Shown here piece after piece: positions 5,991 through 24,740 of a stretch of DNA of 64,000 nt (its first letter is position 1; each line of letters begins with the position of its first letter). The stretch comes from Kordiimonas sp. (lineage in GTDB: Bacteria > Pseudomonadota > Alphaproteobacteria > Sphingomonadales > Kordiimonadaceae): the NCBI RefSeq assembly GCF_965216265.1, contig NZ_OZ244153.1:2785147-2849146 (forward strand), in the 5' to 3' direction. A program made the position numbers and the translations under genes. The notes beneath the pieces are model-generated. The model worked only from the letters and a program-made list of their open reading frames with translations. It was not told the origin of the DNA and ran no database searches.

Positions 5991-6672
5991 ACGTATATGT
6001 GTAAAGCGTGCCGCGATTGTTTACCTCAAGCTGCCAGAACAGCGACTGACCTGCCGACGTGCGCCAATCCTTCAAGACAAAAACCATGGGGCGGGGGCCG
6101 TCCGGCTCCTGTACCGTAAGGTGATAGCCGAGCATCGCGCTATTGCGCTCATCAAAGAAATAAGCCAGCGCCGCCCCTGAATGTGTTGTACCGCTGACCC
6201 TGAACGCGTGTATGCCGTTAAATTCAACCTCGTCCACGTTGTTGTTCATGGTTTCCAGCTCAAGCCGGGGGAAAAGCGCCCGGCGATGGAATTGATGCCC
6301 GCGCACATATTCTATCATATTGGGCGCAAGATCCCGGCGGTTACCATCTTTGCCTTCATACCAGATTGCCCCGTCTGTCTCGCCGTATGTGGCGGTGCCG
6401 TCCTCGCGTATCATCTGGAAGGTGGCGTCCCCAAGGCCCGTGTCTGTCGCCCGGCCACGCACGAGGGTTTTATAGGAGCTGTCGCCGGTGCGCACATTGG
6501 CCTGAGCTTCAACAGTGGTGATCCCGGCTTTGAGCTTGTCCCAGCCGTGATGCTCGTCAGCGGCGTCAAAAAGCTGGTCAGGCGTTGGAAGCTCTGCGGG
6601 TTGCGCGGTCGCCGTTGCAGTCAGGCAAAACACACCAAACAGTAGTCCAATAGTTTGTTTCCATCTGGTCAT
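5965..6672 (-). CDS. Secreted hypothetical protein (possibly LolA-like beta-sheet fold)
   Basis: Signal peptide MTRWKQTIGLLFGVFCLTATATA from the ATG at 6672 with AAGGA upstream; beta-rich body. The fold is a guess. Confidence 0.6.
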   Translation of the reverse strand: MTRWKQTIGLLFGVFCLTATATAQPAELPTPDQLFDAADEHHGWDKLKAGITTVEAQANVRTGDSSYKTLVRGRATDTGLGDATFQMIREDGTATYGETDGAIWYEGKDGNRRDLAPNMIEYVRGHQFHRRALFPRLELETMNNNVDEVEFNGIHAFRVSGTTHSGAALAYFFDERNSAMLGYHLTVQEPDGPRPMVFVLKDWRTSAGQSLFWQLEVNNRGTLYTYTFNKILLLP

Positions 6673-6909
6673 CAGGGTGTCCTTCCCGTTGTGCCTGGCC
6701 CGTCGTGCATCAGCTCCGCGCGGCGCTATCCGTCCATGATAGACCGTATAGGCAGGGAGAAAAGCGAAATTATGGCTCAACTCGCCGCAGTTATGGAACG
6801 CTTCATCGCAGCACATAGTTGTGAATATCCTTTTTGGTGACTCGTCAAAACCGCGCTGCTAGGCTCGCGCGGCAATTCACCGAAAAAGGTGAAAAAAGGG
6901 AGAATAAAC

Positions 6910-8346: not shown

Positions 8347-9614
8347 GCATCATGAAAACATTGATGGGTGCTTCGCTTCTCGCGATTTCAGCGGCAAGTG
8401 CAAGTGCGGAAGATATCGCCATCACCGGTGGTATCGCGTTTACAAACGGCGGTAAGGGCAAGGTGGAAAACGCCACCGTGCTGATCCACGACGGCAAGAT
8501 CCAGTCTGTGACAGCAGGCGGTGAAGTGCCAGCGGGTTACCGCAGCGTGGATGCAAGCGGCAAGTGGGTCACGGTAGGCCTCATGGCTGCGGGCACCAAC
8601 CTGGGCCTCATGGATGTTGGCCTTTCCGGCAATATCAATGACGCCCGCGCGAGCGACGCCAAAAACGGTATCGGCCTTGAAGTGTCATACGCTTTCAACC
8701 CGGACACCACCATCATCCCGAACACCCGGATCGAAGGTGTAACCCGAGCGGTGACGGGTTTCAGTGCCAGCAAGGACATGTGGCGCGGCCAAAGTGCGGT
8801 TATCGCGCTGGCTGGTGACGACATGATCGTGCGCGAGCATGCTGTGCTGAGCATCGATATGGACGAAGGGGCAGCCAGTTCAAACGGCGGTAGCCGGGCA
8901 GCCCTTTGGGACAGCGTGATCACCAAGCTTGAAGAATCTCGCCCGAACGGCGATGACGAAGGTGACAAGAAGGATGACGACAAGAAAGACAAAAAGCCAA
9001 AGTACGATAGCGCCAAAGCGGCCCTTGACCGGCTTTTTGCGGGCGAAATACCGCTTCTTGTCGAAGTTGAGCGTAAAGCTGACATCCTGAATGTGATCAA
9101 GCTCAAGGAACGTTTCGGCATTGAAGTTGTCATCACCGCGGGTGGTGAAGCCTGGATGGTTGCGGAAGAACTTGCTGCGGCAAAAATCCCCGTGGTGATC
9201 GACCCGATACGCAATCTGCCTGAGGACTTTGACACCCTTGGTCAAACCGGTGCGGCCGCTGGCCGGCTCGCGGCGGCGGGTGTGAAGGTTGCTTTCCTCG
9301 CTCCTGATACCCACAACACACGCCTTGTTGCGCAGTCTGCGGGCAATGCTGTGGCGATGGGCATGTCATGGGAAGATGCCATGGATGCGCTGACCGTTAA
9401 CGCGGCGGATATCTTCGGTGTAGCAGACAGCTACGGCACGCTTGAAGCCGGGAAGGACGCAGACGTTGTTGTGTGGACCGGTGACCCGCTTGAGCTGATG
9501 ACAACGGCTGACGCCGTGTTCATCCGCGGTGAAGAAGTGCCTATGGTGAGCCGCCAGACCAAGCTTCGGGACCGGTATATGGACCTGCCGCGCTCTCCCG
9601 CTTACGTAAAGTAA
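8343..9614 (+). CDS. Amidohydrolase-fold protein lacking the HxH metal motif; translationally coupled partner
   Basis: ATGA overlap with the upstream gene; signal peptide; DASGKWVTVGLMAAGT where the HxH is expected; GTLEAGKDADVVVWTGDP. Confidence 0.85.
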   Translation: MSIMKTLMGASLLAISAASASAEDIAITGGIAFTNGGKGKVENATVLIHDGKIQSVTAGGEVPAGYRSVDASGKWVTVGLMAAGTNLGLMDVGLSGNINDARASDAKNGIGLEVSYAFNPDTTIIPNTRIEGVTRAVTGFSASKDMWRGQSAVIALAGDDMIVREHAVLSIDMDEGAASSNGGSRAALWDSVITKLEESRPNGDDEGDKKDDDKKDKKPKYDSAKAALDRLFAGEIPLLVEVERKADILNVIKLKERFGIEVVITAGGEAWMVAEELAAAKIPVVIDPIRNLPEDFDTLGQTGAAAGRLAAAGVKVAFLAPDTHNTRLVAQSAGNAVAMGMSWEDAMDALTVNAADIFGVADSYGTLEAGKDADVVVWTGDPLELMTTADAVFIRGEEVPMVSRQTKLRDRYMDLPRSPAYVK

Positions 9615-9630
9615 GCAGTGAGTTAGTTAT

Positions 9631-9659
9631 AAAAGCCGGGGTTATCGCCCCGGCTTTTT
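9631..9659 (+). terminator. Intrinsic terminator
   Basis: AAAAGCCGGGG-TTATCG-CCCCGGCTTTTT. Confidence 0.8.
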
Positions 9660-9691
9660 AGTATCAGGCAGCGATTTGAGGAGAAAGAGCA

Positions 9692-10756
9692 ATGCGTTCG
9701 ATTGCCGTAAGCCTTGTTGCGAGTTTATTTTTATCCCTTCCCCTTTTTGCGAGCCCAGAGGCATGGCAAGCCCTGCCGGCGCCTCTCAAGGCGGAGCTGG
9801 AAGGGGTTGCCATCTCACTTTACGAGCTTGGGCCGGACGGTGGTGAGGTTGCCCTCAGCCGAGGAAATCTGACAGAGACCACACCACTTCGCATAGCCAG
9901 CGTGACCAAAACATTTGTCGCCGCCACAGCGCTCAGGCTTGTTGAAGACGGCAAGCTTGATCTCATGAAGCCCATGACGACCTATGTGGATAAGGCCTTT
10001 ACCGATATCCTGCGTGAAGACGGTTATGACGTTGACGCGATCACGGTCAAACACCTGATGTCCCATACGGGTGGGCTAACCGACCATGCGCAGACCAAAA
10101 CCTTCTTTGATATCATTATCAAGGACCCAAGCCATGTCTGGACCCGTGAGCAGGCGCTAAGGGGCGCGGTCGACTGGTCTGAGCCCAAAGGCGCACCGGG
10201 GGAGAAATTCTCATATTCTGACACTGGTTATATCCTGCTCGGGCATATCATTGAGAAACTGACGGGCAAACCGCTTGCTGCCGCAGTGCGCTTGCAGCTT
10301 GGTCTTGACCAGATTGGCATGCCAGACACCTACTGGGAGCTGGCGGAAGAAAACGAGGATGCCGCCAAACGCCGCGCACATCAGATGCTGGACGGCATGG
10401 ACACTTACGGCTGGAGCGCCACGCTTGATCATTATGGCGGCGGCGGGCTGGTGTCTTCCACGCGGGATATGGCGCGGTTTTTCCAGGCTCTGTTCAGCGG
10501 AAAGGTTTTCAGGAAACCAGAAACCCTGAACCTTATGCTGTCGAACGAGGGTTTGCCCGCTGATAGCCCTTACCGCCTCGGTATTTTCGTCAAGGAAGAG
10601 AAGGGCGTGACCTATTATGAGCATTCCGGCTTCTGGGGCACTGTTGTGCTTTATGTGCCGTCAAGTGGCCGCACACTATCGGGCGCGGTGCTTGATCAGG
10701 CTCACTTCAAGATGATGCGCCAGGGCTTGATGGAGGTGGTAGCCTCAGGGCAGTAG
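9692..10756 (+). CDS. Serine hydrolase, beta-lactamase class C / D-alanyl carboxypeptidase family
   Basis: SVTK (SxxK), LMSHTGGL, FSYSDTGY, EHSGF; signal peptide. Confidence 0.9.
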   Translation: MRSIAVSLVASLFLSLPLFASPEAWQALPAPLKAELEGVAISLYELGPDGGEVALSRGNLTETTPLRIASVTKTFVAATALRLVEDGKLDLMKPMTTYVDKAFTDILREDGYDVDAITVKHLMSHTGGLTDHAQTKTFFDIIIKDPSHVWTREQALRGAVDWSEPKGAPGEKFSYSDTGYILLGHIIEKLTGKPLAAAVRLQLGLDQIGMPDTYWELAEENEDAAKRRAHQMLDGMDTYGWSATLDHYGGGGLVSSTRDMARFFQALFSGKVFRKPETLNLMLSNEGLPADSPYRLGIFVKEEKGVTYYEHSGFWGTVVLYVPSSGRTLSGAVLDQAHFKMMRQGLMEVVASGQ

Positions 10757-10761
10757 TTGGG

Positions 10762-10789
10762 AAAGGCCGGGTTATTCTCCGGCCTTTTT
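10762..10789. terminator. Bidirectional terminator between convergent genes
   Basis: AAAGGCCGG-GTTATTCT-CCGGCCTTTTT. Confidence 0.7.
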
Positions 10790-11512
10790 GATATCATCGA
10801 AGCGCGGTTTAACCAGCAGCAGAAACAGGCTGGCGGCGAGCCCGGCGGCGGCGAACATCATGCACATCACCATAATCTGGTATCGCGCGGCGATCATGGG
10901 TGAAACGCCTGAGAGGATCTGCCCTGTCATCATGCCGGGCAGGGACACGAGCCCCACAGCAAACAGCGAATTGGTGAGCGGGATAAGCGCAGCCTTGAGT
11001 GCGATGCTGCGCGCTCTGGCGTATGGTTCCCCGCGCATGGCTTCCGCTTCAAACCGCTCAGCCGCCAAACTGATGCTGTTCATGGATGCTGCGAATATCA
11101 TACCCGCGAGCGGGATGATATAACGCGGCGCATACCACGGGCTGAGACTAAGCACACCCTGGGTTATAAGCAAAAGCACACTGCCACCCCCAACCAGAAC
11201 AGCCGCAAGCGCAAGCGGGTATAATGTGCGCCGGGGCAGGCGGGTGGTCCTGAGCGCAATCCAGCTTGCCACCAGCATCATCACTGCCAGCACGGCAATA
11301 ATCACAGCCGCATGTTTCGCCTCAAAAATATAAACCAGCACATAGCCGATCAGCGTGAGCTGCAGCAGCATGCGAGCGAAGCCGTACAGCGTTTCGCGGG
11401 CGTCACGCGACCACAGGTGCAGAATGACAATCACGACCAGTACCGGAAGTGCTGCGAGCGCGAGGTCTAGCGGCGCGATCTGGTGAACGGTGGTGTTCTC
11501 GGTCGTGTTCAT
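10772..11512 (-). CDS. fetB: UPF0014 family ABC permease (FetB/YbbM/STAR2-like)
   Basis: RMLLQLTLIGYVL; RYIIPLAGMI..SMN; GLVSLPGMMTGQILSGVSP..AARYQI. Confidence 0.8.
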   Translation of the reverse strand: MNTTENTTVHQIAPLDLALAALPVLVVIVILHLWSRDARETLYGFARMLLQLTLIGYVLVYIFEAKHAAVIIAVLAVMMLVASWIALRTTRLPRRTLYPLALAAVLVGGGSVLLLITQGVLSLSPWYAPRYIIPLAGMIFAASMNSISLAAERFEAEAMRGEPYARARSIALKAALIPLTNSLFAVGLVSLPGMMTGQILSGVSPMIAARYQIMVMCMMFAAAGLAASLFLLLVKPRFDDIKKAGE

Positions 11513-12108
11513 GCCGCTTTTCGCTTTTTACCGCGCCGGTGCGCAATAATGCGGAGGCTGAGCGCTATGAGGCACAGGATAGGTATCCACAGCCGCGCGG
11601 GCTCTGGCCCGTCTTTCACCAATCGGCCAAGGCTGGTGGCAAGGAAAATGAGCCAGATATAATAGCTGCCCACCTTATGCAGGCGTTTCCAGCGTTTTGC
11701 GCCCAGTTTGCGCACAGATGCATTGTTGGAGGTAAGCGCCATAAGGCTAAGAAACAGATATGCGAGGCCGCCCACCATCAGCTCAGGTATGCCGCGACTT
11801 TCTGGTGTTAGCGCAAGGTTTGATAGAACCAGCACCCCATGTACACCGTGCACCAGTGCGAAGGAAAGCCCGATATAGCGGCGGTTGCGCATGAGGAACT
11901 TTGGCCCCGGGCCCGGCGCAAGCCGCGCGAGCGACGATGCGGTAAAGGCAAAAAAGAACAGCACAAAAGCCATATCTGCTGTGGGGGACATAACAAACGG
12001 CAATGCGCCAACATAGCTGCCTGCCGCTGTGATCTGGCTGTAAACAAAACCAAAAAGTATGAGCGCAACCGGTATAAACAGCCGCTTGCCTTCCAGAAGT
12101 CTCGTCAT
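11509..12108 (-). CDS. Ferric reductase-like transmembrane (MsrQ-like heme b) protein
   Basis: Start set to the ATG at 12108 (GGGAGGGG RBS). Motifs RNRRYIGL..ALVHGVH, ALTSN, RWKRLHK. Stop overlaps the fetB-like start (ATGA/CATG junction). Confidence 0.8.
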   Translation of the reverse strand: MTRLLEGKRLFIPVALILFGFVYSQITAAGSYVGALPFVMSPTADMAFVLFFFAFTASSLARLAPGPGPKFLMRNRRYIGLSFALVHGVHGVLVLSNLALTPESRGIPELMVGGLAYLFLSLMALTSNNASVRKLGAKRWKRLHKVGSYYIWLIFLATSLGRLVKDGPEPARLWIPILCLIALSLRIIAHRRGKKRKAA

Positions 12109-12213
12109 TATGCCCCTCCCAAGGATCACTCGTCGCGAGCGTTGCCTTCGCCGCCAAACGCTGAAATAGTTCCACACAATTGAGTATGGGCAAAATTCTT
12201 TGTGAGCAGAGCG

Positions 12214-13191
12214 ATGACGCTGGAGATAAAACCAATATCCGATGACGACCTGCAGGCCTATTTTGAGCTGATGAACGATGAAAGCATTGCGGTGATGGCT
12301 GGCACGGTGCCGCATCCGGTAACATTTGAGTGGGCGAAAGAACGTGTCCTTAAACGCCGGGTGCAGGAGGCGGAGGGCACACTCGCGCAGCGCGGCTTGT
12401 TTGAGGACGGCGTGCTGGTGGGGGACGTGAGCTATTTCTTCTCGGACGGTAAGGTTGAGATTGGCTACGCCATTGGCAAAGCCCATCGTGGTCGCGGTCT
12501 TGCCACGATCGCTGCCCGGTTCGCAGTAGACCTGGTGCGTGAGCATGGCATCACAGGCCCTATCCGTGCAGGCTACGCGCAGGATAACCCAGCCTCTGGC
12601 CGTGTGCTTGAGAAGGCCGGGTTTGTGCCCAACGGTGAAGGTGTGGGCAAGTCTATGGGCCGCGGCGGCGAAATGCCGCTCTATATGGCCATTTACCGAG
12701 ACGATGTGCGCCTGCGGCCACACCGCGCGGAAGATTTTGAAACGCTGGTCACTTTTGTGGATGACGAAGAAGCCTTCTGTCTGGCAGGCGGGGGCACACG
12801 TGATAAAACGGCTGCGGATATGCAGGCCCGCATCGAGGGCTACATCACCAAAGGCGCCTTTTTTCAGGTGATATTGTTCGAGGGCGCGGCCGCTGGTTAT
12901 GTGGCGGCGTTTGAACGCGAGGGCAAGCTTGAGGTCAGCTATTGGCTTGGCCGGGCTTTCTGGGGCAAGGGCATTGCCAGCCGTGCGCTCGCATTATGGG
13001 TTGAACGCTTGAAGGTGTCGCATCAAGCCACCTGCCCGCGCCACCTTTATGCGCGGGTGGCAAAAGACCACCCGGCATCGATCCGTGTGCTGGAGAAGAA
13101 CGGTTTTAAAGCCGTAAGCGAAGACAGCTATTTTTCCGACCACCGAAACGCGGACGTGGCGGAATGGCTGTACCGATTAACTACCGCTTAG
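12214..13191 (+). CDS. Tandem two-domain GNAT (RimJ/RimL-like) N-acetyltransferase
   Basis: Two repeats: EIGYAIGKAHRGRGLAT...NPASGRVLEKAGF and EVSYWLGRAFWGKGIAS...HPASIRVLEKNGF. Confidence 0.88.
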   Translation: MTLEIKPISDDDLQAYFELMNDESIAVMAGTVPHPVTFEWAKERVLKRRVQEAEGTLAQRGLFEDGVLVGDVSYFFSDGKVEIGYAIGKAHRGRGLATIAARFAVDLVREHGITGPIRAGYAQDNPASGRVLEKAGFVPNGEGVGKSMGRGGEMPLYMAIYRDDVRLRPHRAEDFETLVTFVDDEEAFCLAGGGTRDKTAADMQARIEGYITKGAFFQVILFEGAAAGYVAAFEREGKLEVSYWLGRAFWGKGIASRALALWVERLKVSHQATCPRHLYARVAKDHPASIRVLEKNGFKAVSEDSYFSDHRNADVAEWLYRLTTA

Positions 13192-13233
13192 ATAAATTCA
13201 TCTGATCGATTAATGTCAGCATATAATTCAATT

Positions 13234-13369
13234 GGCGCTATCAGTCCGGTGGTGCCATCTTCTCTTTATTGAGTGTTTCCTTAAAAGTTCCTCGCTGGCC
13301 CCTTATGGGGCCGTTCACCCGCTGCCGGTATGTGTCCTCCTAAGTCACACCGGTGGCGGGTTTTCTTTT
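13234..13369 (+). ncRNA. Candidate sRNA with a UCCUCC loop and intrinsic terminator
   Basis: TATAAT at 13222-27; hairpin 13297-13312; stem 13317-13361 with loop TCCTCCTAAGT; T-tract after it. Confidence 0.45.
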
Positions 13370-13485
13370 CCAAAAACATGAGGGAGGGCAGCACATTCTT
13401 TGTCCCATAAACGGGGGGTGCAAATTGTGCACCTTGCTGGAGCTTAGGGGCTAGGGCATCCGGCAAACCGCACGTGGGGAGAGAA

Positions 13486-13902
13486 ATGACAGGCGGCAAC
13501 ATACGCGCCCGCATCCATGAGATGCTGGCTATGCTGGAAGCTGGCGAGTTTTTAAAGACATTTGATCAGTTTTATCGGGACGATGCCCGTTTTTTTGAAA
13601 ATGAATATCTGTTCGCCGAAAGTCGGGAGGAGGCCCGCCAGCGGCAAGCTTCATTCCTGAATACCTGTAGCAGCTTTGTGGGGAAAATTGAGCTGGTGCA
13701 CGCCGATATTGGCCGCCGTATTGCGGTCTTTCACAACAAAAGCCGGTATGAGCATCCCGAGTATGGCGAGGGCTATATCAACGGGGTGCACGTCGCTTAT
13801 TGGCATGACGACCTTATCGTGCGGGAGGAGTATTTCTCCGGCAAGCGGGTGGATGAGGTATTGTCCTTCTGGCGGCTTGTGGGGCGTTCCTCAACGCAGT
13901 AG
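13486..13902 (+). CDS. SnoaL-like / NTF2-like protein
   Basis: MLEAGEFLKTFDQFYRDD..F.EN; VHVAYWHDDLIVREEYF; RBS GGGGAGAG. Confidence 0.75.
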   Translation: MTGGNIRARIHEMLAMLEAGEFLKTFDQFYRDDARFFENEYLFAESREEARQRQASFLNTCSSFVGKIELVHADIGRRIAVFHNKSRYEHPEYGEGYINGVHVAYWHDDLIVREEYFSGKRVDEVLSFWRLVGRSSTQ

Positions 13903-13932
13903 CAGGTTCTTTGTGGGTTTTAGACAAAGGTG

Positions 13933-14401
13933 TCAGTCGCCCGCTGGCACCTTCAGGCTGTTCCATATATCGTGCTGGATACGCCAGACACCGGCTATCT
14001 TGCGCCATGTGATAAGATAAGCGCCCCGGAATGCGCGTTCTTCACCGTCATCATTGGCTGAGGCGCCTTCGAAATAGCCGATATCTGTTGCCACATCGCC
14101 ATGGACAGTGAGCTCCTCTGACGTGATCTCATGCCTGACTGGATGCCATTTAGCCCCGTCACGTGGGGTCCAGTATTGGCGTATCTTTTCCTCGCCTTTA
14201 AGGATGGGGCGGTTAGTGGGCACTATGCTGGCATCCGGCGCATATATGGCCATCAGCGTGTCGGTCTCGCCCGAAACATATGCGCGGGAGAAGGCTGCAG
14301 CCTGCGCCTCTATGGCAGCCCGATCTTCACTGTCATCAGCCGCTTGAACACCTATTGGGCAGGCCATCCAAGATACTGAGCATGATGATGAGTGCGCGCA
14401 T
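13933..14401 (-). CDS. YybH/DUF4440 (NTF2-like) protein whose signal peptide is separated by a 1-nt frameshift near 14368
   Basis: AAFSRAYVSGETDTLMAIYAPDA; GDVATDIGYF; GAYLITWRK..G.WRIQHDIWN. The RBS-linked ATG at 14401 is 34 nt upstream of the ORF-track ATG at 14367. Confidence 0.75.
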
Positions 14402-14412
14402 GGTATTCCCTC

Positions 14413-15315
14413 CTACCCGTGATGGTGCATGACGTCTTTGATGACGTTGCCGAGCGTTTCAAACGTTGCAGCGCGGGGGTTGGTTTTGCGCCATATCAGC
14501 CCGATGGTGCGGGTGGGGATCATGTCTTTGAAGCTGACGATATCAACCCGCGCCTTGTCGGCGAGCCCCGCCTCTACCGCCATGCCCGGCAACAGGGTGA
14601 TACCGTGGCCTGCCGCAACCATTTGAATGATGGTGCCAAGGCTTGTGCCTGCCATCTCCCGCCGTGCGCCGCGGCCTACCAGCTGGCAGGCCTCTAGCGC
14701 GTGGTCCCTCAGGCAATGTCCTTCCTCAAGCAGCATCAGGCGGCTCTCGTCCAGGTCGGTGGTGTTGATGCGTTCACCCGGTGCTTGCCCGTGCGGGTAG
14801 GCCACCATGAAGGGGTCATGAAACAGCGGCATCTCCGCCACATCACCGCAGGCATAGGGAAGTGCAAACAGCACAAGGTCCAACTCGCCGGAGCGCACAA
14901 GCTCACAAAGCTCGGCTGACTTGTCTTCGCGCAAATGCAGTTCCAGGTCAGGCAGCCTTTCATGAATGGCAGGCATGATCCTGGGCAACAGGAACGGTGC
15001 AATAGTGGGGATAATGCCAAGGCGCACGATGCCCTTCAAAGGGTCCTTCGCGGCGGACGCCATGTCGGTCAGGTCATCAACGTCATTGAGGATAACCTGC
15101 GCACGGCGCACGACCTCTTCCCCGAGGGCGGTGAACATAACGCTCCGTTTGGTGCGTTCCACAAGCTGAGTGCCGAGAAGGCTTTCAAGTTCCTGCAGCC
15201 CGGCAGACAGGGTTGATTGTGTTACATGGCTGGCGTCTGCCGCTTTGCCAAAATGGTTAGTGCGGTGCAGCGCAACAAGGTAACGCAACTGTTTGAGGGT
15301 AGGTGGAAAGCTCAT
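14413..15315 (-). CDS. oxyR: Hydrogen-peroxide-inducible LysR regulator OxyR
   Basis: TLKQLRYLVALH...HFGKAA..SHVTQSTLS; LGIIPTIAPFLLP; LLEEGHCLRDHALEAC with both redox Cys; TSLGTIIQMVAAG.GITLLP. Confidence 0.93.
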   Translation of the reverse strand: MSFPPTLKQLRYLVALHRTNHFGKAADASHVTQSTLSAGLQELESLLGTQLVERTKRSVMFTALGEEVVRRAQVILNDVDDLTDMASAAKDPLKGIVRLGIIPTIAPFLLPRIMPAIHERLPDLELHLREDKSAELCELVRSGELDLVLFALPYACGDVAEMPLFHDPFMVAYPHGQAPGERINTTDLDESRLMLLEEGHCLRDHALEACQLVGRGARREMAGTSLGTIIQMVAAGHGITLLPGMAVEAGLADKARVDIVSFKDMIPTRTIGLIWRKTNPRAATFETLGNVIKDVMHHHG

Positions 15316-15368
15316 CGATAATCCCGATCACAGAATTCACTTCTATTTGTTGGATCGATGGTAATCAT
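15314..15368. promoter_or_regulatory. OxyR/LysR-type binding region
   Basis: AGAA-N7-CTAT-N7-ATCG-N7-TCAT at 15332-15368 (consensus ATAG-N7-CTAT-N7-ATAG-N7-CTAT), plus ATCG-N7-CGAT at 15314-28 over the oxyR start. Confidence 0.6.
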
Positions 15369-15385
15369 TCGGCGATAGTCATTCA

Positions 15386-15715
15386 ACAGGAATTCACCGG
15401 CAATGCTTCCTCCCCCAAGGCATTGCCCTGTGCTTCGGCCTGTAACGATCGTGCATTGGTCCCCCTTTGCGCGGTTCGCGGTGACCAAACCGGCAACCCG
15501 ATCCCCTTTGAGGTCATGTGCCTCATTGGAATGCCCAAGGGATATCTATCCGGGCTGGTCACCGCGATGCAAATTCAGAAGGGATTGTGGCGTTCGCAAA
15601 GCCTTCGACCAAAAATCAGCCCGCTGCCCGATTCTCGTCACAATTGGGCGGTCTGATACAAGCGGCCTCAAAGGTGCGAGATTTTCGCGCTCTTTCGGGC
15701 CGCTTTCTGTTTGTA
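15386..15715 (+). ncRNA. Candidate structured sRNA divergent from oxyR (OxyS-like position)
   Basis: Hairpin 15399-15427 with loop CCTCCCCCA; 12-bp perfect stem 15476-87/15556-67; terminal stem 15660-15705 followed by a T-rich tail; no credible protein ORF. The ends are estimates. Confidence 0.55.
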
Positions 15716-15813
15716 TTGTCCCATAGAGTTTACGCGTTCCGTACCGCTATATATGGCGTTCTCGGTGCAGGCTATCGGTAAATCTGGTGATGGGGCTGAG
15801 GTGAGCAGCAGGC

Positions 15814-15921
15814 AAAAAAATGGCCGGGTAAATACCCGGCCCGAGTCACGACAGCGAGGATAGTGCGGCGGCAGTCACGCACACCGCAATAGGAGTGAGC
15901 ACGAACGAGTCGTGCCCTCTC
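15814..15921 (-). ncRNA. Candidate sRNA (~105 nt) with its own promoter and terminator
   Basis: Minus strand: TTGACC (15958-53), two stem-loops, CU-rich linkers (CACTCCT, ATCCTCG), terminator GGCCGGGT-ATTT-ACCCGGCC and a T7 tract. Confidence 0.55.
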
Positions 15922-16154
15922 GCCTGACTAAGAAACCAAATAACGGCCTTCTGGTCAATGCTTGTCTGATCACATTCCGCCAAACACCTGAAAAACAGCC
16001 AAAAAATCCCGTTGCAGTGCAATAAAAAGCATGAATTTGGGGCGTCGGTTATAGAACCTTTTACTGTAAAAAACCGTCAGTGGTCACACACGTCGTAGGT
16101 GATTCGCGACGCTTTAATGACAAAAGGCTCAGTTTTTGCCGATGAAAGCGTCCG

Positions 16155-17135
16155 CTACTTGCCGATGAAGTCGTCCGCTACTTTACAAGCGGCTGGTCCG
16201 ATCAAGACAACAAAGAGCGTGGGCAAGATAAAGAGGATAAGCGGTACTGTCAGTGTGGCAGGAAGTCGCGCGGCTTTTTCTTCAGCTTTCATCAGCCGTT
16301 CGTTCCTGAATTCGGCGGACAAAACCCGGAGCGAAGAAGCAAGCGGTGTACCGTAGCGTTCGCTTTGAATAAGCGTCGTAACCACGCCCCTGAGCGCGGG
16401 CAGGTCCACCCGGTCTGAGAGATTGATAAGCGCCTGGCGCCGCTCTGGCAGGAAACCAAGCTCGATGGCGGCAAGCGAGAACTCGTCTGCCAGCTCGGGC
16501 GACGCCCGGCCCAGTTCCTTTGCGACCCTACCCAATGCACTATCAAGCGTCAGGCCTGCTTCAGCGCACACAACCAGAAGGTCAAGCGCGTCAGGTAGCG
16601 ATTTACGGATCAGGTCTGTGCGTTTTTGTTTCACATTGGTGATGTAAATATCTGGCAGCTTCAGGCCGAGGAAGACCGCAACAACCGAATAGACAGGATA
16701 CATCTGCTCATGCGTGGGCATGTATCTGAACCCATAGAAGAGTATCACCGCGATCAGGCCCACCAGCAGCGGCAGGGTGAGCCGCGCGACCTGATAGATC
16801 ACCACGGCATCTGACGACCTGTACCCGGCCTGCAACAGGCTTGCGGATACTTTGGCGGTTTGTTCCTTCTGCAGGAGTTGCAGCTTGTCTGCCAGCGCCC
16901 GCATGCCGTTAACACCGTCCACCTTGCGCACGGGTGAGCGCCGCTTGGAGGTGGTCATCAGCCCGGCTTTGAGGGAATCACGCCGGTCCTGCAGCGATTT
17001 CACCCGGCCCTTCATGGGGTCACGCACCAGCGCGGTCTGGTAAACCGCCACCATCACAAGAAGGGCAACAGCACCCGCCGCGAAGGAGATAAGGTCGATG
17101 ATCGGTATGCCGATGATATTTTCAATCTCATTCAT
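16155..17135 (-). CDS. tadC: Tad pilus inner-membrane platform protein TadC (T2SS F family)
   Basis: LPDALDLLVVCAEAGLTLDSAL; LIQSERYGTPLA..LRVLSAEFR..R..KAEEKAARLP..LTVPLILF. Confidence 0.93.
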   Translation of the reverse strand: MNEIENIIGIPIIDLISFAAGAVALLVMVAVYQTALVRDPMKGRVKSLQDRRDSLKAGLMTTSKRRSPVRKVDGVNGMRALADKLQLLQKEQTAKVSASLLQAGYRSSDAVVIYQVARLTLPLLVGLIAVILFYGFRYMPTHEQMYPVYSVVAVFLGLKLPDIYITNVKQKRTDLIRKSLPDALDLLVVCAEAGLTLDSALGRVAKELGRASPELADEFSLAAIELGFLPERRQALINLSDRVDLPALRGVVTTLIQSERYGTPLASSLRVLSAEFRNERLMKAEEKAARLPATLTVPLILFILPTLFVVLIGPAACKVADDFIGK

Positions 17136-17137
17136 GG

Positions 17138-18127
17138 CTATACCTCAAACTTGATCATGCGGGACATGATGAAAATGCCCAGTGACATCCATATGAGCGC
17201 GCCAATACCCGCCATGATCGCCTTTGGGTTGGTAAAGAGGATGATGCCGTAATCATAGTTCATCGTCATGATGGCGCCGAGCATGATGAACGGCAGAAGG
17301 CCGACAATCCAGGCGCTTGCCTTGGCTTCGGACGACATGGCTTTCACCTTCAATTTCATGGCCTGCCGCTGGCGCAGGATGTTGGAGAGGTTGCCAAGGG
17401 TCTCGCCCAGGTTACCGCCGGTTTCCCGCTGCACCACGAGCGAGATCACAAAAAACTTGAAGTCTGCGGTGTCCAGCCGGTCTGCGGTTTCCCAAAGTGC
17501 TTCCTCAAGCTGTTTGCCGAGGCGCATGGCGTCTGTGATCTTGCGGAACTCAACGCCCGTGGGTTCCGGCAGTTCCGTTGCCACGTTGGCGATGCATTCG
17601 TTCACCGGCAGGCCTGATTTGAGGCCACGCACCATCAGGTCCATCGCTTCCGGGAACTGTTTGGTAAACTTGTCCTTGCGGGCGGCCATACGGTTTGAAA
17701 CCCACACATGCGGCAGGCCAATGCCTGCGATAACACCAATGGCCAGCGCGAGCATCACCCCGAAACCTGCAAGGAAAAGCGTGAGCGCCGAGAAGGCCGC
17801 GAGCCCGAGGCAAATGGTGGCGTAGCGCGACAGTTCCATCGCGAGGCCAGCCTGTCCAAGGCGGTTTTTGATCTGGTCACGTCGGGGCAGCAGGTCCGAG
17901 AGCATACCGGCAAGCCCGGTTTGTTCCTGATTGACCCGGATCGACCGGCTGCCTTCGCCCTTCAGGATAGTTTTCTGGTCAAAGCGGGCTTTGAAACGCT
18001 CAAGCTTGGCGCGGGTTTCCTTGCGGCCCTTGCTTAGGGTGTTTGAAAGAACGATCATCACGATCAGCAAAACAAACACGGCACCGCCGCCCGCGAGAAG
18101 GATGATGTCAAGGTTTGTATCACCCAT
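17138..18127 (-). CDS. tadB: Tad pilus platform protein TadB
   Basis: QFPEAMDLMVRGLKSGLPV; VQRETGGNLGETLGNLS..LRQR..MKLKVKAMSSEAKASA. Confidence 0.93.
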   Translation of the reverse strand: MGDTNLDIILLAGGGAVFVLLIVMIVLSNTLSKGRKETRAKLERFKARFDQKTILKGEGSRSIRVNQEQTGLAGMLSDLLPRRDQIKNRLGQAGLAMELSRYATICLGLAAFSALTLFLAGFGVMLALAIGVIAGIGLPHVWVSNRMAARKDKFTKQFPEAMDLMVRGLKSGLPVNECIANVATELPEPTGVEFRKITDAMRLGKQLEEALWETADRLDTADFKFFVISLVVQRETGGNLGETLGNLSNILRQRQAMKLKVKAMSSEAKASAWIVGLLPFIMLGAIMTMNYDYGIILFTNPKAIMAGIGALIWMSLGIFIMSRMIKFEV

Positions 18128-19799
18128 TCATGGCCTCCATCAGCGCGCGTTCCAGCCCGAAATATTCTGCCTTGGTGAGGAAGTGTGGCCTCACGCCTGT
18201 TGAGTTGAAGCTGCCAACCAGACGGCCGCTTTCATCCTCGCCGGTAAATTCAAATTTGAACAGGTCCTGCGTGGTGATCACGTCGCCTTCCATGCCTACA
18301 ACCTCGGTGACATGGGTGGTGCGGCGGCCACCGTCGCGCATGCGCTGTACCTGCACAATCAGGTCAAGAGACGCTGATACCTGCTCACGGATAGCTTTGG
18401 CGGGCAAATGCAGCCCCGCCATGTTGACCATATTCTCCAGCCGGGTCAGCGCCTCACGCGGCCTGTTGGCGTGGATGGTGCCCATGGAGCCGTCGTGGCC
18501 CGTGTTCATGGCTTGCAGCATGTCAATTGCTTCACCGCCCCTGATCTCACCGAGGATGATACGGTCTGGCCGCATACGAAGGGCGTTTTTCACCAAGTCA
18601 CGCATGGTAACCTCGCCGCCGCCCTCAAGGTTTGCGGGGCGGGTCTCGAGGCGCACCACATGGGGCTGCTGCAGTTGCAGCTCAGCCGCATCCTCGATGG
18701 TGACAACGCGTTCGCCCTTGTCAATCATGCGGGAAAGTGCGTTCAGCATCGTGGTTTTACCGGACCCTGTACCGCCTGAGATAAGGATATTGAGACGGCA
18801 GGCGCCTGCAATTTTCAATAACTTCGCGAGAGGCGGTGTGATGGAGCCAAACTCGAGCATCTTGTCGAGGGTGATCTTGTCTTTGGTGAACTTCCGTATG
18901 GAGATAGACGCACCATCAATGGCCAGCGGCGGTGCAATAACGTTCACGCGGCTACCGTCTGCAAGGCGTGCGTCACAGATGGGCGAGCTTTCATCCACGC
19001 GCCGCCCCACGGCGGTCACGATACGCTGCGCCACGTTCATCAAATGCTGATTGTCACGGAAGTGTACGTCCGTCAGGCTGATGCGGCCTTTTTGCTCCAC
19101 ATAAACCTGGTTGGGGCCGTTGACCATGATGTCTGAGATGGTGTCGTCCGCCAGCAAGGGCTCAAGCGGGCCAAGGCCCAGCATGTCGTCAAGGAGCAGG
19201 GACACAAGGTCACGTTGTTCCGTGAGGTTCAGGTTGATCTTTTCCTGAACCAAGAGTTCACCCACCACTTCACCAACCTGGTCGGCCAGTTCAGGGCGCG
19301 GCAGGTCTGCCGCTGCCGTGGGGTCGATGTGCTCCATCAGGAGGACCTGAATACGGTCGCGAGCCTCAAACAGCGTCTTTTTGTTGGCGTCCTGCTTCTT
19401 CGGTGTCGAGGCCGAGCTGTCGCCGATAGGGCCGATGTTCTCTTCCGCTTCATTGAGCAGATAGGTCTCAAGATCCTTCTGTTCCTGCGGGCTGAGGGTG
19501 CCGTTTTCCTCTTCCAGAATGCCGACGATCATGGAACCGATTTTTTTGACCACTTCGCCTTTGGTGGCCATGCGCAGCTCATCTGCAGTGAAGTGATCCT
19601 TGAGCCGCTCGTCACCAATTTCTGCGATACGATCGATGAAATCGGTGGGGGCTGATTGTTCATTGGCCGGGCGTGGGGAGAGAGCTTGCTGGGGGGCGCC
19701 TATAAGCGGCTTGGGAACGGCAGCAGTGCTGCCCCGGCCAAAGCTTCCGCCCGCCCGTTGTGGTCCTTGCCGTTTTTTTCCAAAGCCTGTCGGTTTCAT
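18120..19799 (-). CDS. cpaF: Tad pilus ATPase CpaF/TadA with an extended N-terminus
   Basis: GLGPLEPLL.D..ISDIMVNG; Walker A GGTGSGKTT; TIEDAAEL; MRPDRIILGE; MNTGHDGSMGTIHAN. Confidence 0.95.
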   Translation of the reverse strand: MKPTGFGKKRQGPQRAGGSFGRGSTAAVPKPLIGAPQQALSPRPANEQSAPTDFIDRIAEIGDERLKDHFTADELRMATKGEVVKKIGSMIVGILEEENGTLSPQEQKDLETYLLNEAEENIGPIGDSSASTPKKQDANKKTLFEARDRIQVLLMEHIDPTAAADLPRPELADQVGEVVGELLVQEKINLNLTEQRDLVSLLLDDMLGLGPLEPLLADDTISDIMVNGPNQVYVEQKGRISLTDVHFRDNQHLMNVAQRIVTAVGRRVDESSPICDARLADGSRVNVIAPPLAIDGASISIRKFTKDKITLDKMLEFGSITPPLAKLLKIAGACRLNILISGGTGSGKTTMLNALSRMIDKGERVVTIEDAAELQLQQPHVVRLETRPANLEGGGEVTMRDLVKNALRMRPDRIILGEIRGGEAIDMLQAMNTGHDGSMGTIHANRPREALTRLENMVNMAGLHLPAKAIREQVSASLDLIVQVQRMRDGGRRTTHVTEVVGMEGDVITTQDLFKFEFTGEDESGRLVGSFNSTGVRPHFLTKAEYFGLERALMEAMNG

Positions 19800-19820
19800 G
19801 TGCCTGATACTATCCCGCCG

Positions 19821-21038
19821 TTACTTACCCAACAGTTTACCAAACCATGATTTTTTACTGTCACCGATGGTGTCATCCGAGGTGACGGTGCGAAGCAGCG
19901 TCAGGTAAGCATCCGAAATCTTGCTTCTGGGGGCTTCCTCACAAATGACGACGCCTTTTTGGGTGGCCGCCATCATGGCTTTCACATCAAAAGGAACCTT
20001 CACATCAACAGCGTGCTCGATGGAGTTTTCAAAGTCTTTCTCGTCCACCTCATTAGGGACCATACCGACCTTGTTGGCTGCGACATAAACGTCAGCGCTG
20101 GGCGCGATCTGTTTGATGTGCGCCAGAAGGCGAATACAGTCTCGCGCAGAGGTGAGGGAGAAGTCTGTCACCACGATGATATCCGTGGCGGACTTGAGCA
20201 CATCCACGTGTGAGCCCATAAGTTGGCGCGGTACATCCACCACAACACAGTCGAAGTTTTCACCTAGTGCATCCACCAGCTGTTCGAGCGCGCCGTCTGC
20301 CGGGTCGCTCATGCCGCCAATTGGTGCTTCGCAGCCAAGGATGGAAAGTTTCTCATGGGGTTTTACCACGGCCCGCTCAAGGAAAAGGCCATCAACCCTG
20401 CGGGGGTTGTCAAGCGCGTCTGAAAGTCCACGACCGGGTTCAAGGTCAAACTGCATGGCAGAGGTGCCGAAAAACAGGTCAAGGTCCAGAAGCGCAGTTT
20501 TCTTGCCTTGGTCAGCAAAAAGCCAGGCCATGTTGGCAACCAGCGTGCTGGCGCCAATACCGCCTCGAACGCCCACGCAAACAATCTGCCGTGCGTCTGT
20601 CTTGGGGCCTTGCTCCTCAACCTCTTCTTCAACAAAGATCGCGTTTTCCGCCGCCACAACAGCGCTGTGAAGCACTTCTGCGGTGAGGGGTTTGACAAGA
20701 TAGTCATGCACGCCCGCATGCAACAGGTCGCGGTAGAGTGTTACGTCATTAAGCGTGCCAAGCGCCAGCACGACCGTGCCGGGTTCACACACGTCGGCGA
20801 GCGACTGCATGTCTGCGCGAGGGTCCTCGCTGTCGGACAGGTCGACAATCAGAAACTCAGGGCAGGGCATGCCGCCGAGCGCACGGACCGCACCGGCAAC
20901 GCCGCCAGAGAAAATCATGTCCGGGTCCCAACCACGTTCAGTAATGACGGGGTGCAGGATTTGGGATGAAAGCTCATCGCAGATGAACGCGGCGTATGTC
21001 TCGCGCTGATCCAGCTTTACTGCAGATGCGGATGCCAT
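19821..21038 (-). CDS. cpaE: Pilus localisation protein CpaE/TadZ (receiver-like domain plus ParA/MinD-like domain)
   Basis: LYRDLLHAGVHDYLVKP; deviant Walker GVRGGIGASTL; LLDLDLFFGT. Confidence 0.9.
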   Translation of the reverse strand: MASASAVKLDQRETYAAFICDELSSQILHPVITERGWDPDMIFSGGVAGAVRALGGMPCPEFLIVDLSDSEDPRADMQSLADVCEPGTVVLALGTLNDVTLYRDLLHAGVHDYLVKPLTAEVLHSAVVAAENAIFVEEEVEEQGPKTDARQIVCVGVRGGIGASTLVANMAWLFADQGKKTALLDLDLFFGTSAMQFDLEPGRGLSDALDNPRRVDGLFLERAVVKPHEKLSILGCEAPIGGMSDPADGALEQLVDALGENFDCVVVDVPRQLMGSHVDVLKSATDIIVVTDFSLTSARDCIRLLAHIKQIAPSADVYVAANKVGMVPNEVDEKDFENSIEHAVDVKVPFDVKAMMAATQKGVVICEEAPRSKISDAYLTLLRTVTSDDTIGDSKKSWFGKLLGK

Positions 21039-21051
21039 CTCTCACGCCTCC

Positions 21052-21756
21052 CTAGTTATTGCCTTGCACAGGCGCGCCTGGCGTGGGAAGGGGCTGTGTG
21101 ACAGGCGGCATGCCGTCGATCGAGAGGGTCATGGTTGGCCCGGTGGACTGCGGTGTGGGCGTATAGAGCGCGCCAACCGCTGCGGCCGTTGAGTTGCCAC
21201 CATTTTCACCCGCGATCAAATCACGCGGGTTGGCCACCATCATGCCCAGGTTCGAGGTCACCGCGCAGCCAAAATAGCTGCTGGTATTGTTGCGGGTGTT
21301 GTTGCTGGCCTCGCTCGGCCAGCCGCCACAGGCCGGCGGGGTCACGATATAGCGTTCCACATAGAGGTTGATGGTGCCGGGCTGCGGTTCTGCACCAAGA
21401 GGGGCTTCACCTGCATACACAAGGCCGCGCTTTTTGAGGAAAGCAGCGACCGCGTCACGGCGGTTGGGAGAGCTTGCGCTATCCAGCATGATGATATCGC
21501 CGTGGCCCGCGTTAACGCTGGCGAGGAAAGCCCCAAGGGCCGCGAATGTTGCGTTTGAAGGCGTGTCGGTGCCGTCATCTTCCGCCATGATGGTGTGGTC
21601 GAGCCGCACCATAGTGACAGCGTTGCGGTTCACGGTTTCGCCCAGTGTTGGCTCAACCACATTGTCGTGCATGCACGCGGTTGTGGTGAGAAGCGAGAGG
21701 CTGATGGCAAGTGGCTTCAACATAGTGGCCACAGAATTTGCATGAAGGTTTTTCAT
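21052..21756 (-). CDS. cpaD: Pilus assembly lipoprotein CpaD
   Basis: Lipobox-like LTTTAC; PPACGGWP...N..SSYFGCAVTSNLGMMVANPRDL. Confidence 0.88.
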   Translation of the reverse strand: MKNLHANSVATMLKPLAISLSLLTTTACMHDNVVEPTLGETVNRNAVTMVRLDHTIMAEDDGTDTPSNATFAALGAFLASVNAGHGDIIMLDSASSPNRRDAVAAFLKKRGLVYAGEAPLGAEPQPGTINLYVERYIVTPPACGGWPSEASNNTRNNTSSYFGCAVTSNLGMMVANPRDLIAGENGGNSTAAAVGALYTPTPQSTGPTMTLSIDGMPPVTQPLPTPGAPVQGNN

Positions 21757-21771
21757 CGTTCGGGCCTTTCC

Positions 21772-23226
21772 TTAGTCGAGTTGGAAGCCAGCGCGCTTCT
21801 TCAGGGAAGCGCCGTCGGCGTTATCTAGGGTGGAAGCCACATCCGGCTCGGTTGGTACCCAGCGGCGGCCATTGAGGAACCGGTCCATATCCGTTGGGGC
21901 GACAAATTTGTCTGTTGGCAGCACAAGCTGGCGGTCAGACACCGGGCGCACGATATAAGGGGTTACAACGATCAGAAGTTCGGTTTCCTCGCGGCGGAAC
22001 TTCTCGGACCGGAACAGCGCACCAAGGATAGGAATGTCGCCAAGGCCGGGGAATTTGTCCGAATCTTCCACCACATTGTTCTGCAACAGCCCTGCGATCG
22101 CGAAGGATTGGCCGGAGCCCAGCTCAACCGTTGTTTCCGCGCGGCGGGTGCTGATGGATGGCACGCTGATGCCTTCAACGCGGATTGCTCCGGCGGATGA
22201 CAAATCACTGACCTCAGGGCGCACCCGCATGGAAATGCGGCCTGTGTTCATCACCGTGGGGGTAAACTCAAGCTGCACACCAAACTCGCGGTACTGGATG
22301 CCGAGGCCGTCCCGGCTTGGGACCGGAATGGGGAACTCACCACCCGCGAGGAAATTGGCTGTCTGGCCTGTGAGCGCGGTGAGGTTCGGCTCCGCCAGCA
22401 CACGCAGGAAACCCTCCTGGTCAAGCGCGTCAATCGCCCAGTTCAGGTCAAGCCCGCCGCCGCCTACGCTACCCATAAGGCTGAAGGCATCTGCGGCCGG
22501 ATTGAAGACCTTGGTGGGCAGTTCCGTAACCGGGTCGAGGATAATGTCTGCAACGTTACGGGTCTGAAACAACCCAAAGCCTACGTCGCCTGTGCCGTAT
22601 AGCCCTTCCCATGCGAAGCCAAGCTGCTTGACCACGCTGCGGGAAACTTCTGCAATACGTACACGCAGGTTCACCTGTGTTGGTTGGGTCACGTTCAGGC
22701 TGTTCATCACCTGGTCTGTGCCAAGCACGGTATGGGCCAGCCGCTCTGCCAGTGCGGCCTCATCGGGCCCACCCACGTTGCCTTGCAATACGACAAGACG
22801 ACCAAGCGTGGTAACCTCGATGGGCACACCGGGCAGCATGCGGTCGAACGCCGTGCGCAGCGCAGTCAAATTCCGTGTTACCTGGACGGTTGAGCTGTAG
22901 ATTGTATTGTCTTCGCTATCGAGCGCATAGAAGGTGGTTTCGCCCTGTGCCTTGCCAAAGATATAGACAATGCGCGCAGATTTGACCTGAACGTCCGCAA
23001 CCTCGGGGTTTGCGATGAAAATCTCGCTTGCAGGACGATCAAGCCGGATAAGCGTGCCCTTGCTCACCTCGATAGCGAGGTTCTTGTCCGTAGCCGCCAT
23101 GAGGCTCGCACCGTCAACATCGGTGAGCGCATCCGCGCCTGCAGGCACCAGTGCCGCACCAAGGCCGAAGCACAGGGTCAGGCCCATGGCCGCGCGGTGC
23201 ATCATGTGTGGGAGTTGCCTGATCAT
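21772..23226 (-). CDS. cpaC: Tad secretin CpaC/RcpA
   Basis: QVNLRVRIAEVSR; LAEPNLTALTGQTANFLAGGEFPIP; RRAETTVELGSGQSFAIAGL; PGLGDIPILGALFRS. Confidence 0.95.
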   Translation of the reverse strand: MIRQLPHMMHRAAMGLTLCFGLGAALVPAGADALTDVDGASLMAATDKNLAIEVSKGTLIRLDRPASEIFIANPEVADVQVKSARIVYIFGKAQGETTFYALDSEDNTIYSSTVQVTRNLTALRTAFDRMLPGVPIEVTTLGRLVVLQGNVGGPDEAALAERLAHTVLGTDQVMNSLNVTQPTQVNLRVRIAEVSRSVVKQLGFAWEGLYGTGDVGFGLFQTRNVADIILDPVTELPTKVFNPAADAFSLMGSVGGGGLDLNWAIDALDQEGFLRVLAEPNLTALTGQTANFLAGGEFPIPVPSRDGLGIQYREFGVQLEFTPTVMNTGRISMRVRPEVSDLSSAGAIRVEGISVPSISTRRAETTVELGSGQSFAIAGLLQNNVVEDSDKFPGLGDIPILGALFRSEKFRREETELLIVVTPYIVRPVSDRQLVLPTDKFVAPTDMDRFLNGRRWVPTEPDVASTLDNADGASLKKRAGFQLD

Positions 23227-24119: not shown

Positions 24120-24197
24120 TGCTGCCCCTCCTGGCTTCCAAGTTGCCTACCCAAGGCGTGTGGGTCACGCGCACAAGGGTTAAAAAACTGTCTTAGT

Positions 24198-24689: not shown

Positions 24690-24740
24690 TTTTCTGTGCC
24701 TGAGATCTGAAATTAGGATTACCTGGTCCTGCGTTTCAGT

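Follow-up and report, generated by a model that had tools for sequence, protein, structure and literature searches.

The 64-kb window analysed here (the whole stretch of DNA under study, from Kordiimonas sp.; Alphaproteobacteria, Kordiimonadales) carries, between oxyR and tadC, an element on the + strand that is non-coding and under structural constraint, as follows from its folding, from compensatory changes in its closest relative, from the variants found among near-identical strains and from the lack of a coding signal. We consider it fairly probable that this element is a non-coding RNA of the OxyR side which replaced the ahpC-ahpD genes (ahpCD), which are found in the same position in two related loci. 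Both oxyR and tadC (16155-17135) lie on the - strand, and the 839 bp between them are without a convincing open reading frame (ORF), in agreement with the initial annotation of this DNA, which had noted about 840 bp and no divergent protein gene. That annotation had interpreted the region as a peroxide-induced, OxyS-like RNA with several pairing seeds, and as a whole its interpretation is partly supported by the results below. For the comparison, a scan with the OxyR protein yielded 20 Kordiimonas/Kordiimonadaceae loci, and further OxyR relatives led to eight more (L166-L173); about 25 Kordiimonas loci were compared overall, and the count of 18 used below refers to those which carry a small RNA (sRNA) on the - strand. 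The closest relative is a metagenome-assembled genome (MAG; L001) whose OxyR is 97% identical.

The element is predicted to be composed of the following parts.

15385..15712, + strand: predicted non-coding RNA of about 327 nt, defined by folding, conserved architecture and lack of coding signal.
15399..15427, + strand: hairpin 1, a 10-bp stem (eight perfect pairs, one G-U and one A-U) with the apical loop CCUCCCCCA at 15409-15417.
15460-69 and 15502-10, + strand: C-rich motifs TCCCCCTTTG and TCCCCTTTG, respectively, read from the sequence.
15447..15476, + strand: hairpin 2, presenting UUGGUCCCCCUUUG.
15476..15567, + strand: long-stem domain, in which a 12-bp perfect stem encloses an inner hairpin that presents GAUCCCCUUUG (15500-15510).
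15578..15606, + strand: hairpin 4, of 10 bp.
15615..15657, + strand: hairpin B', AUCAG / GCUGCCCGAUU / loop CUCGUCAC / AAUUGGGCGGU / CUGAU, conserved throughout the genus.
15660..15712, + strand: intrinsic terminator A', a 19-bp GC-rich stem (15660-15705) with the tail UUUCUGUUUGUAUUG.

Folding of 15385-15715 on the + strand gave a minimum free energy (MFE) of -148.1 kcal/mol as against a mean of -110.1 for shuffled sequences (z = -7.84), and none of 100 dinucleotide shuffles was as stable, while the - strand of the same region reached z = -3.99. The MFE structure contains 111 pairs and involves 67% of the positions; 13 of the pairs are G-U and would thus be A-C mismatches on the other strand. 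The 12-bp stem of the long-stem domain corresponds to a perfect inverted repeat (15476-87/15556-67) extendable to 18 nt at 89% complementarity, and the terminal stem (15660-15705) is followed by TTTCTGTTTGTATTG. The hairpin at 15399-15427, the C-rich motifs, the 12-bp stem and the terminal stem that had been described in the initial annotation were all recovered at exactly these positions, and its proposal of a structured, non-coding + strand element of about 330 nt is borne out by the z-score, by the architecture kept in L001 and by the absence of a coding signal. The element had not been recognized as a member of a named family, and no match to it was indeed obtained from Rfam, either for 15200-16250 at E-values up to 10 or for the window at the gathering score.

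Structural conservation in relatives, which the initial annotation had suggested as a check, was evident in L001, the only locus to which 15380-15800 could be aligned by blastn (74% identity); a small core near 15611-15665 recurred widely. The helices of the element recur in the same order in the fold of L001, for which z was -6.15 on the + strand as against -2.01 on the - strand. RNAalifold analysis of the two sequences revealed 81 shared pairs, ten of which differ on both sides and yet still pair, as compared with zero to three in slid controls and with 1 of 500 shuffles that attained this number. When the MFE pairs of the window were looked up in L001, 15 proved to be changed on both sides, 11 of which had stayed canonical (43% in slid controls). 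In hairpin 1, half of the ten pairs differ and all still pair, the loop of L001 being UCUCCCCCA and the shared loop (C/U)CUCCCCCA; in hairpin 2, the apical 18 nt, with UUGGUCCCCCUUUG at the apex, are identical and the changes in the stem are compensated. Three pairs are changed on both sides in the long closing stem and another three in hairpin 4, whose inner stem is of a different sequence with the helix retained. The 3' module is 94% identical between the two.

Beyond L001, a core CCGGCAAYCCRAUCCCC(C)UU...UGGWAUGCC is recognizable in L002 and L003, where a long closing stem again surrounds an inner hairpin presenting UCCCC(C)U; this homology was read by eye, as a four-way alignment based on sequence only was not in structural register. 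Both loci have spacers of similar length, with + strand z-scores of -5.9 and -2.4, respectively, and in all five loci with long spacers the MFE was lower on the + strand. Medium forms of about 190-215 nt are present in the K. gwangyangensis locus L004 as well as in L166 and L167, the last with CCUCCCUG near its 5' end. In L003 (K. aestuarii), the + strand spacer (locus position ~3700-3760) contains a tandem duplication, GATGCCAGAGGAAG(G/A)CGATGCCAGAGGAAGA, inside its version of the RNA, which reads as purine-rich, Shine-Dalgarno-like repeats on the + strand. A metagenome scan with the 16-mer GAWTCTCGTCACAWTT returned at least 120 matches, which were unrelated and due to chance.

Near-identical strains in public sequencing runs differ by ten substitutions within the element, of which seven fall on unpaired positions, two are exchanges between G-C and G-U, valid for the + strand alone, and the remaining one breaks a pair. 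No codon periodicity was detected between the window and L001, with 21, 25 and 25 mismatches in the three phases, and the indels inside the body (1, 1, 1, 3 and 11 nt, with a further 1-nt gap in the last column of the alignment) are frame-breaking. As the ORFs of the element also had no Pfam match, a small protein was rejected. A repeat or mobile element, such as a repetitive extragenic palindrome or a miniature inverted-repeat transposable element, was likewise rejected, since a blastn search of the window and 45 loci with 15380-15810 found the syntenic copy only.

Examination of the same slot in relatives, the synteny check proposed in the initial annotation, revealed ahpC-ahpD divergent from oxyR in L009 and in the K. 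laminariae locus L011, only these two among the Kordiimonas loci, which are not sister lineages in the OxyR tree.

L009:2644-3884 and L011:2552-3763, locus - strand: ahpC and ahpD, divergent from oxyR.

ahpCD is a classic OxyR target. In both loci B' and then A' follow ahpD, and A' ends the ahpCD operon. The core of B', TGCC(C/T)GATT.T.GTCACA(A/T)TT (15625-15645 in the window), was present in 18/18 loci with the - strand sRNA and occurs just once in the window; its stem alternates between CCCG..UGGG and CUGA..UCAG among loci, and in L012 U7 directly follows the B' hairpin itself. An equivalent of A', i.e. a hairpin with a U-rich tail, was found in the window, L001-L004, L009 and L011, and across these seven species it exhibits seven covarying pairs, with several G-U pairs valid only on the + strand. 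In 16 of the 18 loci, the + strand was the more stable one for the 115-nt 3' module (mean difference, -6.6 kcal/mol). Treated as mere structure in the initial annotation, the 3' hairpin turned out to be the part that is conserved throughout the genus. The ahpD frame of L009 is about seven codons longer than that of L011 and ends at a stop codon within the conserved B' sequence (GCCTGATTC). Four states of the slot occur in the genus: the operon itself, only about 110-170 bp from oxyR to the hairpin, a medium form (about 190-215 nt) and a long form (about 330 nt). The possibility that B' is a sigma-70 or sigma-54 promoter was rejected, as no conserved partner hexamer was seen by eye at the right spacing and as such a promoter would point into ahpD in L009 and L011.

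The region between the oxyR start codon and the predicted RNA contains OxyR-type sites and two putative back-to-back promoters.

15314..15328, unstranded: LysR-type transcriptional regulator (LTTR) box ATCG-N7-CGAT, which fits T-N11-A, overlaps the oxyR start codon and has its centre about 65 bp before the predicted start on the + strand.
15332..15368, unstranded: four-element site resembling the OxyR consensus, AGAA-N7-CTAT-N7-ATCG-N7-TCAT, found by consensus scoring.
15350..15379, + strand: predicted divergent promoter, -35 TTGGAT (15350-55), 18-nt spacer, -10 GATAGT (15374-79), start at about 15385-15386.
15359..15387, - strand: putative oxyR promoter proposed from the sequence, -35 TTGAAT (15387-15382), -10 TACCAT (15364-15359).

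The ATCG-N7-CGAT box is one of only two matches in 64 kb, and CATCGA...CCGAT is conserved in nearly all of the 20 aligned Kordiimonas loci (this alignment covered the first 100 nt upstream of the oxyR ATG). The OxyR-spaced motif reported in the initial annotation at 15332-68 is present and matches the consensus used, that of E. coli (ATAG-N7-CTAT-N7-ATAG-N7-CTAT), at 11 of 16 positions; no other site on either strand of the window reaches this score, which makes it the best match there, and the same score was reached by 0.3% of random 150-nt pieces of the window. The corresponding site in L001 also scores 11. A TATAAT-like -10 of oxyR (TATAAT, TATCAT, TAGCAT, TAATAT etc.) is located about 45 nt from the ATG, at the same distance in 20/20 loci. 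On the opposite strand, the predicted RNA start lies about 70 nt from this ATG, and the promoter block TTGGAT-N18-(G/C)AT(A/C/G)(A/G/T)T is kept in L001-L004, L009, L010 and L167 (GATAAT in the last), and precedes ahpC in L009. It is followed by the 5' leader CAACAG in the window, L001-L004 and L167, with the variant CAACAA in L009. Relative to the predicted start (~15385), the dyad centres fall near -65, -47 and -36, and the OxyR dyads of E. coli oxyS are centred at -66, -44 and -35, the distal one being that at -66 (PMC5002191). The link to OxyR is strengthened by the presence of ahpCD in the same slot together with the same promoter block (in L009), B' and A'.

Based on these data, the + strand would be transcribed from a promoter back to back with that of oxyR (-35 at 15350-55, -10 at 15374-79, start at ~15385), and transcription would stop at 15660-15712. 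In the mechanism that we consider most likely, oxidised OxyR would, under peroxide, bind the ATCG-N7-CGAT box and the site at 15332-68 and activate this promoter. The predicted RNA would then work in trans through base pairing, in that its exposed C-rich loops (CCUCCCCCA, UCCCCCUUUG and AUCCCCUUUG) could pair with G-rich ribosome-binding regions and/or the region of the B' loop (GAUUCUCGUCACAAUU) could pair. We hold such an anti-Shine-Dalgarno mechanism with less confidence than the view that an OxyR-side RNA replaced ahpCD. As to its origin, the most likely and most economical history is that ahpCD beside oxyR was lost several times, with the OxyR-side promoter and the 3' end joined into a non-coding unit, and that in the subclade of the window this unit was elaborated into a multi-hairpin RNA of 327 nt, by a route already described for OxyS of E. 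coli (PMC8825220).

As described by Krieger et al. 2022 (PMC8825220), OxyS stands in the place of a former peroxidase gene beside oxyR and derives from its 3' end and terminator, whereby it inherited OxyR control. The same kind of arrangement from which those authors recognized a peroxidase-born sRNA was found here, with ahpC-ahpD in the slot in L009 and L011 and with B' and A' at the 3' end of the element. Like OxyS (RF00035), the element is divergent from and adjacent to oxyR, with putative OxyR-type dyads at comparable distances from its predicted start; it is non-coding with an intrinsic terminator at its end; and it lies in the slot where relatives have an OxyR-controlled peroxidase gene, of which it retains the 3' end. 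In contrast to OxyS, it showed no covariance-model match at E-values up to 10 and is about 327 nt long with six helical elements, whereas OxyS measures ~109-110 nt with three stem-loops; furthermore, the genes replaced were ahpC-ahpD in the case of the element and a peroxiredoxin-glutaredoxin hybrid in the case of OxyS. The element stands outside all named families and, as our best guess, works like OxyS. It is conceivable, and we put it forward tentatively, that Kordiimonas independently repeated the birth of OxyS, i.e. that ahpCD was lost, that its promoter and its 3' hairpin and terminator survive as an RNA and that one subclade grew the 330-nt form with C-rich loops. Such an event would be independent because the element is not homologous to OxyS and its host belongs to the Alphaproteobacteria.

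Other sRNAs of Alphaproteobacteria, CcsR/cuckoo, AbcR and MmgR, bear C-rich anti-Shine-Dalgarno loops. Similarly, the element shows C-rich motifs (CCUCCCCCA, UCCCCCUUUG) in the apical loops of stable hairpins, and a link to oxidative stress is plausible in common; it differs from these sRNAs in being much longer, in lacking a covariance-model match and in having its motifs in one subclade only. The only match at gathering level to MmgR (RF00519), an sRNA with a C-rich motif, was observed elsewhere in the window (45401-45474, + strand, 57.6 bits). With the 3' untranslated region (UTR)-derived SorX of Rhodobacter sphaeroides (PMC8625941) the element shares a conserved hairpin and terminator in the 3' UTR of a stress operon (ahpCD in L009 and L011), but unlike SorX its parent operon is gone from the window and the RNA would apparently be under its own promoter, the former operon promoter.

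Several observations weigh against the element being an RNA that took the place of ahpCD. The body (15399-15612) is just 51-77% identical to L001 and not alignable beyond L003, and the spacers of short-spacer species yielded no significant structure on folding; thus, the C-rich 'seeds' are not genus-wide, and their loop motifs are absent from L004 and the short forms. Of the C-rich multi-seed body envisaged in the initial annotation, the exposed loops and their retention in L001 stand, whereas their occurrence is specific to one subclade (the window, L001 and in part L002 and L003). The covariation comes essentially from two sequences with partial support from two more, and it was not deepened by L166-L173, as none of these eight loci, found through OxyR relatives, has the long form. 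In tblastn searches with the L009 proteins, no AhpC/AhpD remnant was detected in 15300-16160 (the best E-value, 0.046 over 23 amino acids in a very small database, is noise), nor was there any AhpC/AhpD match in the entire window; with translated similarity at the level of noise, an ahpC/ahpD pseudogene was rejected, and since no coding remnant of ahpCD is detectable, the descent of the body from that operon is deduced from its flanks only. The score of the four-element site falls to 9/16 in L002 and L003, and the site was not found at this place in many other species. The -35 of the divergent promoter is weak (3/6 matches), because of which this promoter was not called by the scan tool. Finally, the sole hint of expression, from run X43, is an unstranded contig at a depth of 3.8 from a run whose type was guessed.

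That contig, a single identical stretch of 151 nt at 15405-15555, was the only one in about 40 kb of the window recovered from X43, presumed to be an RNA run, and the chance of this under random DNA coverage is roughly 1%. Runs with the same species label gave no contig in 15000-16400 (1.4 kb). Contigs from RNA runs of related species cover the - strand sRNA and its flanks, and X31 and X32 cover the neighbouring genes evenly; these runs do not define transcript ends, nor do they bear on the + strand element. The X25 contig (15813-16000) is bordered on either side by homopolymer runs, and its ends were for this reason not read as RNA ends. In X25, which was guessed to be RNA, a 151-nt piece (24844-24994) and the region of the - strand sRNA were the only two contigs in 5500-25400.

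The most serious rival to an OxyR-side RNA that replaced ahpCD is a neutral leftover, in which ahpCD was lost, promoter and terminator remain and the sequence between them is drifting filler, so that any transcript would be a by-product without function; we regard this as unlikely. It would suit the fast divergence of the body, whose 51-77% identity to L001 compares with 99% for the neighbouring - strand sRNA, as well as the range of lengths among species, from ~100 to ~330 nt with the short forms unstructured, and rapid evolution is expected of new mRNA-derived RNAs (PMC8825220). Drift, however, would not give z-scores of -7.8 and -6.2 on the same strand in two diverged species, nor would it leave ten pairs changed on both sides and still pairing; the loops conserved inside the diverged stems of hairpins 1 and 2, and the strain substitutions, which avoid paired positions, also speak against it.

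Slightly less likely still, in our estimation, is that only the 3' module matters, with B' and A' serving as a terminator or insulator between convergent units or giving rise to a processed 3' fragment of ~100 nt as the real regulator, and with the 5' hairpins as decoration of one lineage. The identity of this module to L001 (94%, as against 51-77% for the body), the presence of the B' core in all 18 loci and once only in the window, the covariation of A' across seven species and the U7 directly after B' in L012 would all be accounted for in this way, and new sRNAs arise most commonly from 3'-end fragments, OxyS being one such case (PMC8825220). Left unexplained would be the compensated upstream stems and the conserved C-rich loops shared by the window and L001, as well as the inner hairpin that is conserved in L002 and L003, and the invariant 21-nt sequence would be needless for a plain terminator. 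That the region instead represents a signal of the other strand or of the DNA (a long oxyR 5' UTR, read-through from the sRNA, protein-binding palindromes, a repeat or mobile element) or a small protein is highly improbable: the hairpins are largely strand-symmetric, the - strand too has a z-score of -4.0 and + strand ORFs of 87-117 amino acids exist, but oxyR has a short leader, as its -10 lies ~45 nt from the ATG in 20/20 loci and ahpC of L009 starts only 117 nt away, so that a long leader or - strand element was rejected on this ground and on that of the 13 G-U pairs specific to the + strand, where the MFE is consistently lower, and no other copy was found in the window or the loci, nor a Pfam match or periodicity, in addition to the frame-breaking indels.

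Among the points that favour an OxyR-side RNA in the place of ahpCD, the structure, its compensatory conservation, the strand, the non-coding nature and the synteny with ahpCD are observed. Its transcription, its control by OxyR and trans-acting pairing via the C-rich loops and/or the B' loop are predicted from these features.

A second feature, overlooked in the initial annotation, is a conserved sRNA on the - strand (15814-15923), which is convergent with the + strand element without overlapping it and is the best-conserved intergenic feature of the locus.

15814..15923, - strand: separate convergent sRNA of 110 nt with two covarying hairpins, CUCC, the invariant CUAUCCUCGCUGUCGUGACUCG and the terminator GGCCGGGUAUUUACCCGGCC followed by U7.
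15927..15960, - strand: promoter-like block of putative function, CATTGACC-N14-TTTGGTTTCTTAG.

A covariance model found one copy of this sRNA in each of the 18 loci, at 104-130 bits, and no second copy in the window. Eleven of its 31 pairs are changed on both sides, which none of 500 shuffles attained, and it folds with z = -4.4 and is 99% identical to L001. A stretch of 40 nt including CUAUCCUCGCUGUCGUGACUCG is invariant, its single strand contains CCUC and its canonical terminator was found by the scan tool. In the metatranscriptomes X27-X30, it was the only part of the locus covered. In the upstream block, CATTGACC is invariant in the 18 loci and TTTGGTTT.TTAG near-invariant. Rfam returned sub-threshold matches of the sRNA to SorY (33.5 bits, gathering score 111) and SorX (29.5 bits, gathering score 46.6), with E-values of ~1e-4 for a 1-kb search. 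Like both of these models (RF02651/RF02784), with which it shares the layout of the 3' half, the sRNA has there a similar single strand, CCUCGCUGUCGUGACU as compared with CCUCCCUGUUG-GACU, followed by a GGCCGGG-type terminator; unlike them, it has an extra 5' hairpin, a helix closing the 5' and 3' ends and a context between tadC and oxyR. Pairing between the + strand RNA and this sRNA was rejected, as the duplex energy was no better than that of shuffled sRNA (5.7% reached it), with a tool that permits unrealistically large loops. Between tadC and the sRNA (15961-16154, read on the - strand), further blocks are conserved in the genus, with CGAATCAC at ~16098-16107 and TTGCACTGCAA at 16012-16022 as examples. 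They comprise a CGAATCA(C) motif, located ~140 nt upstream of CATTGACC, and, ~60 nt upstream of it, a motif resembling a palindrome, TTG(C/T)G..(C)CA / TTGTGGTCA(C); such blocks may serve as sites for regulators or belong to a longer precursor.

The identity of the regulator itself was examined along with the neighbouring genes.

14413..15315, - strand: oxyR coding sequence, a LysR-type regulator of 300 amino acids with the cysteine pair GHC...EAC, read from the translation.

Its product contains the Pfam domains HTH_1 and LysR_substrate, and its best NCBIfam match was the OxyR model NF008361, with 241 bits, which is under the equivalog cut-off of 329 bits and far above the other LTTR models; database relatives carry the name 'hydrogen peroxide-inducible genes activator'. 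Downstream of oxyR lies a DUF4440/SnoaL-like gene (13933-14367, - strand), and upstream a tad pilus cluster (16155-19799, - strand) with tadC, a second T2SSF-type gene (17138-18127) and an ATPase-like ORF (18120-19799). Upstream of oxyR, L006 and L016 (K. marina and one Kordiimonadaceae MAG) are rearranged and hold other genes, with no - strand sRNA within the flank fetched.

How new bacterial regulatory RNAs arise and join regulons is an open question, for which OxyS is the best-documented case. To our knowledge, its origin from a peroxidase mRNA is a single example, from one family of Gammaproteobacteria. If the proposed history of the Kordiimonas element is true, a second, unrelated case in the Alphaproteobacteria would show that this route, by which an enzyme is lost and its OxyR-controlled promoter and 3' end are kept as an RNA, is repeatable and not a historical accident. 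The genus would then offer a natural series of sRNA birth and elaboration, from ahpCD through short and medium forms to a long structured RNA. With the element and the 110-nt - strand sRNA, a marine order that has been poorly studied gains two candidates for new RNA families.

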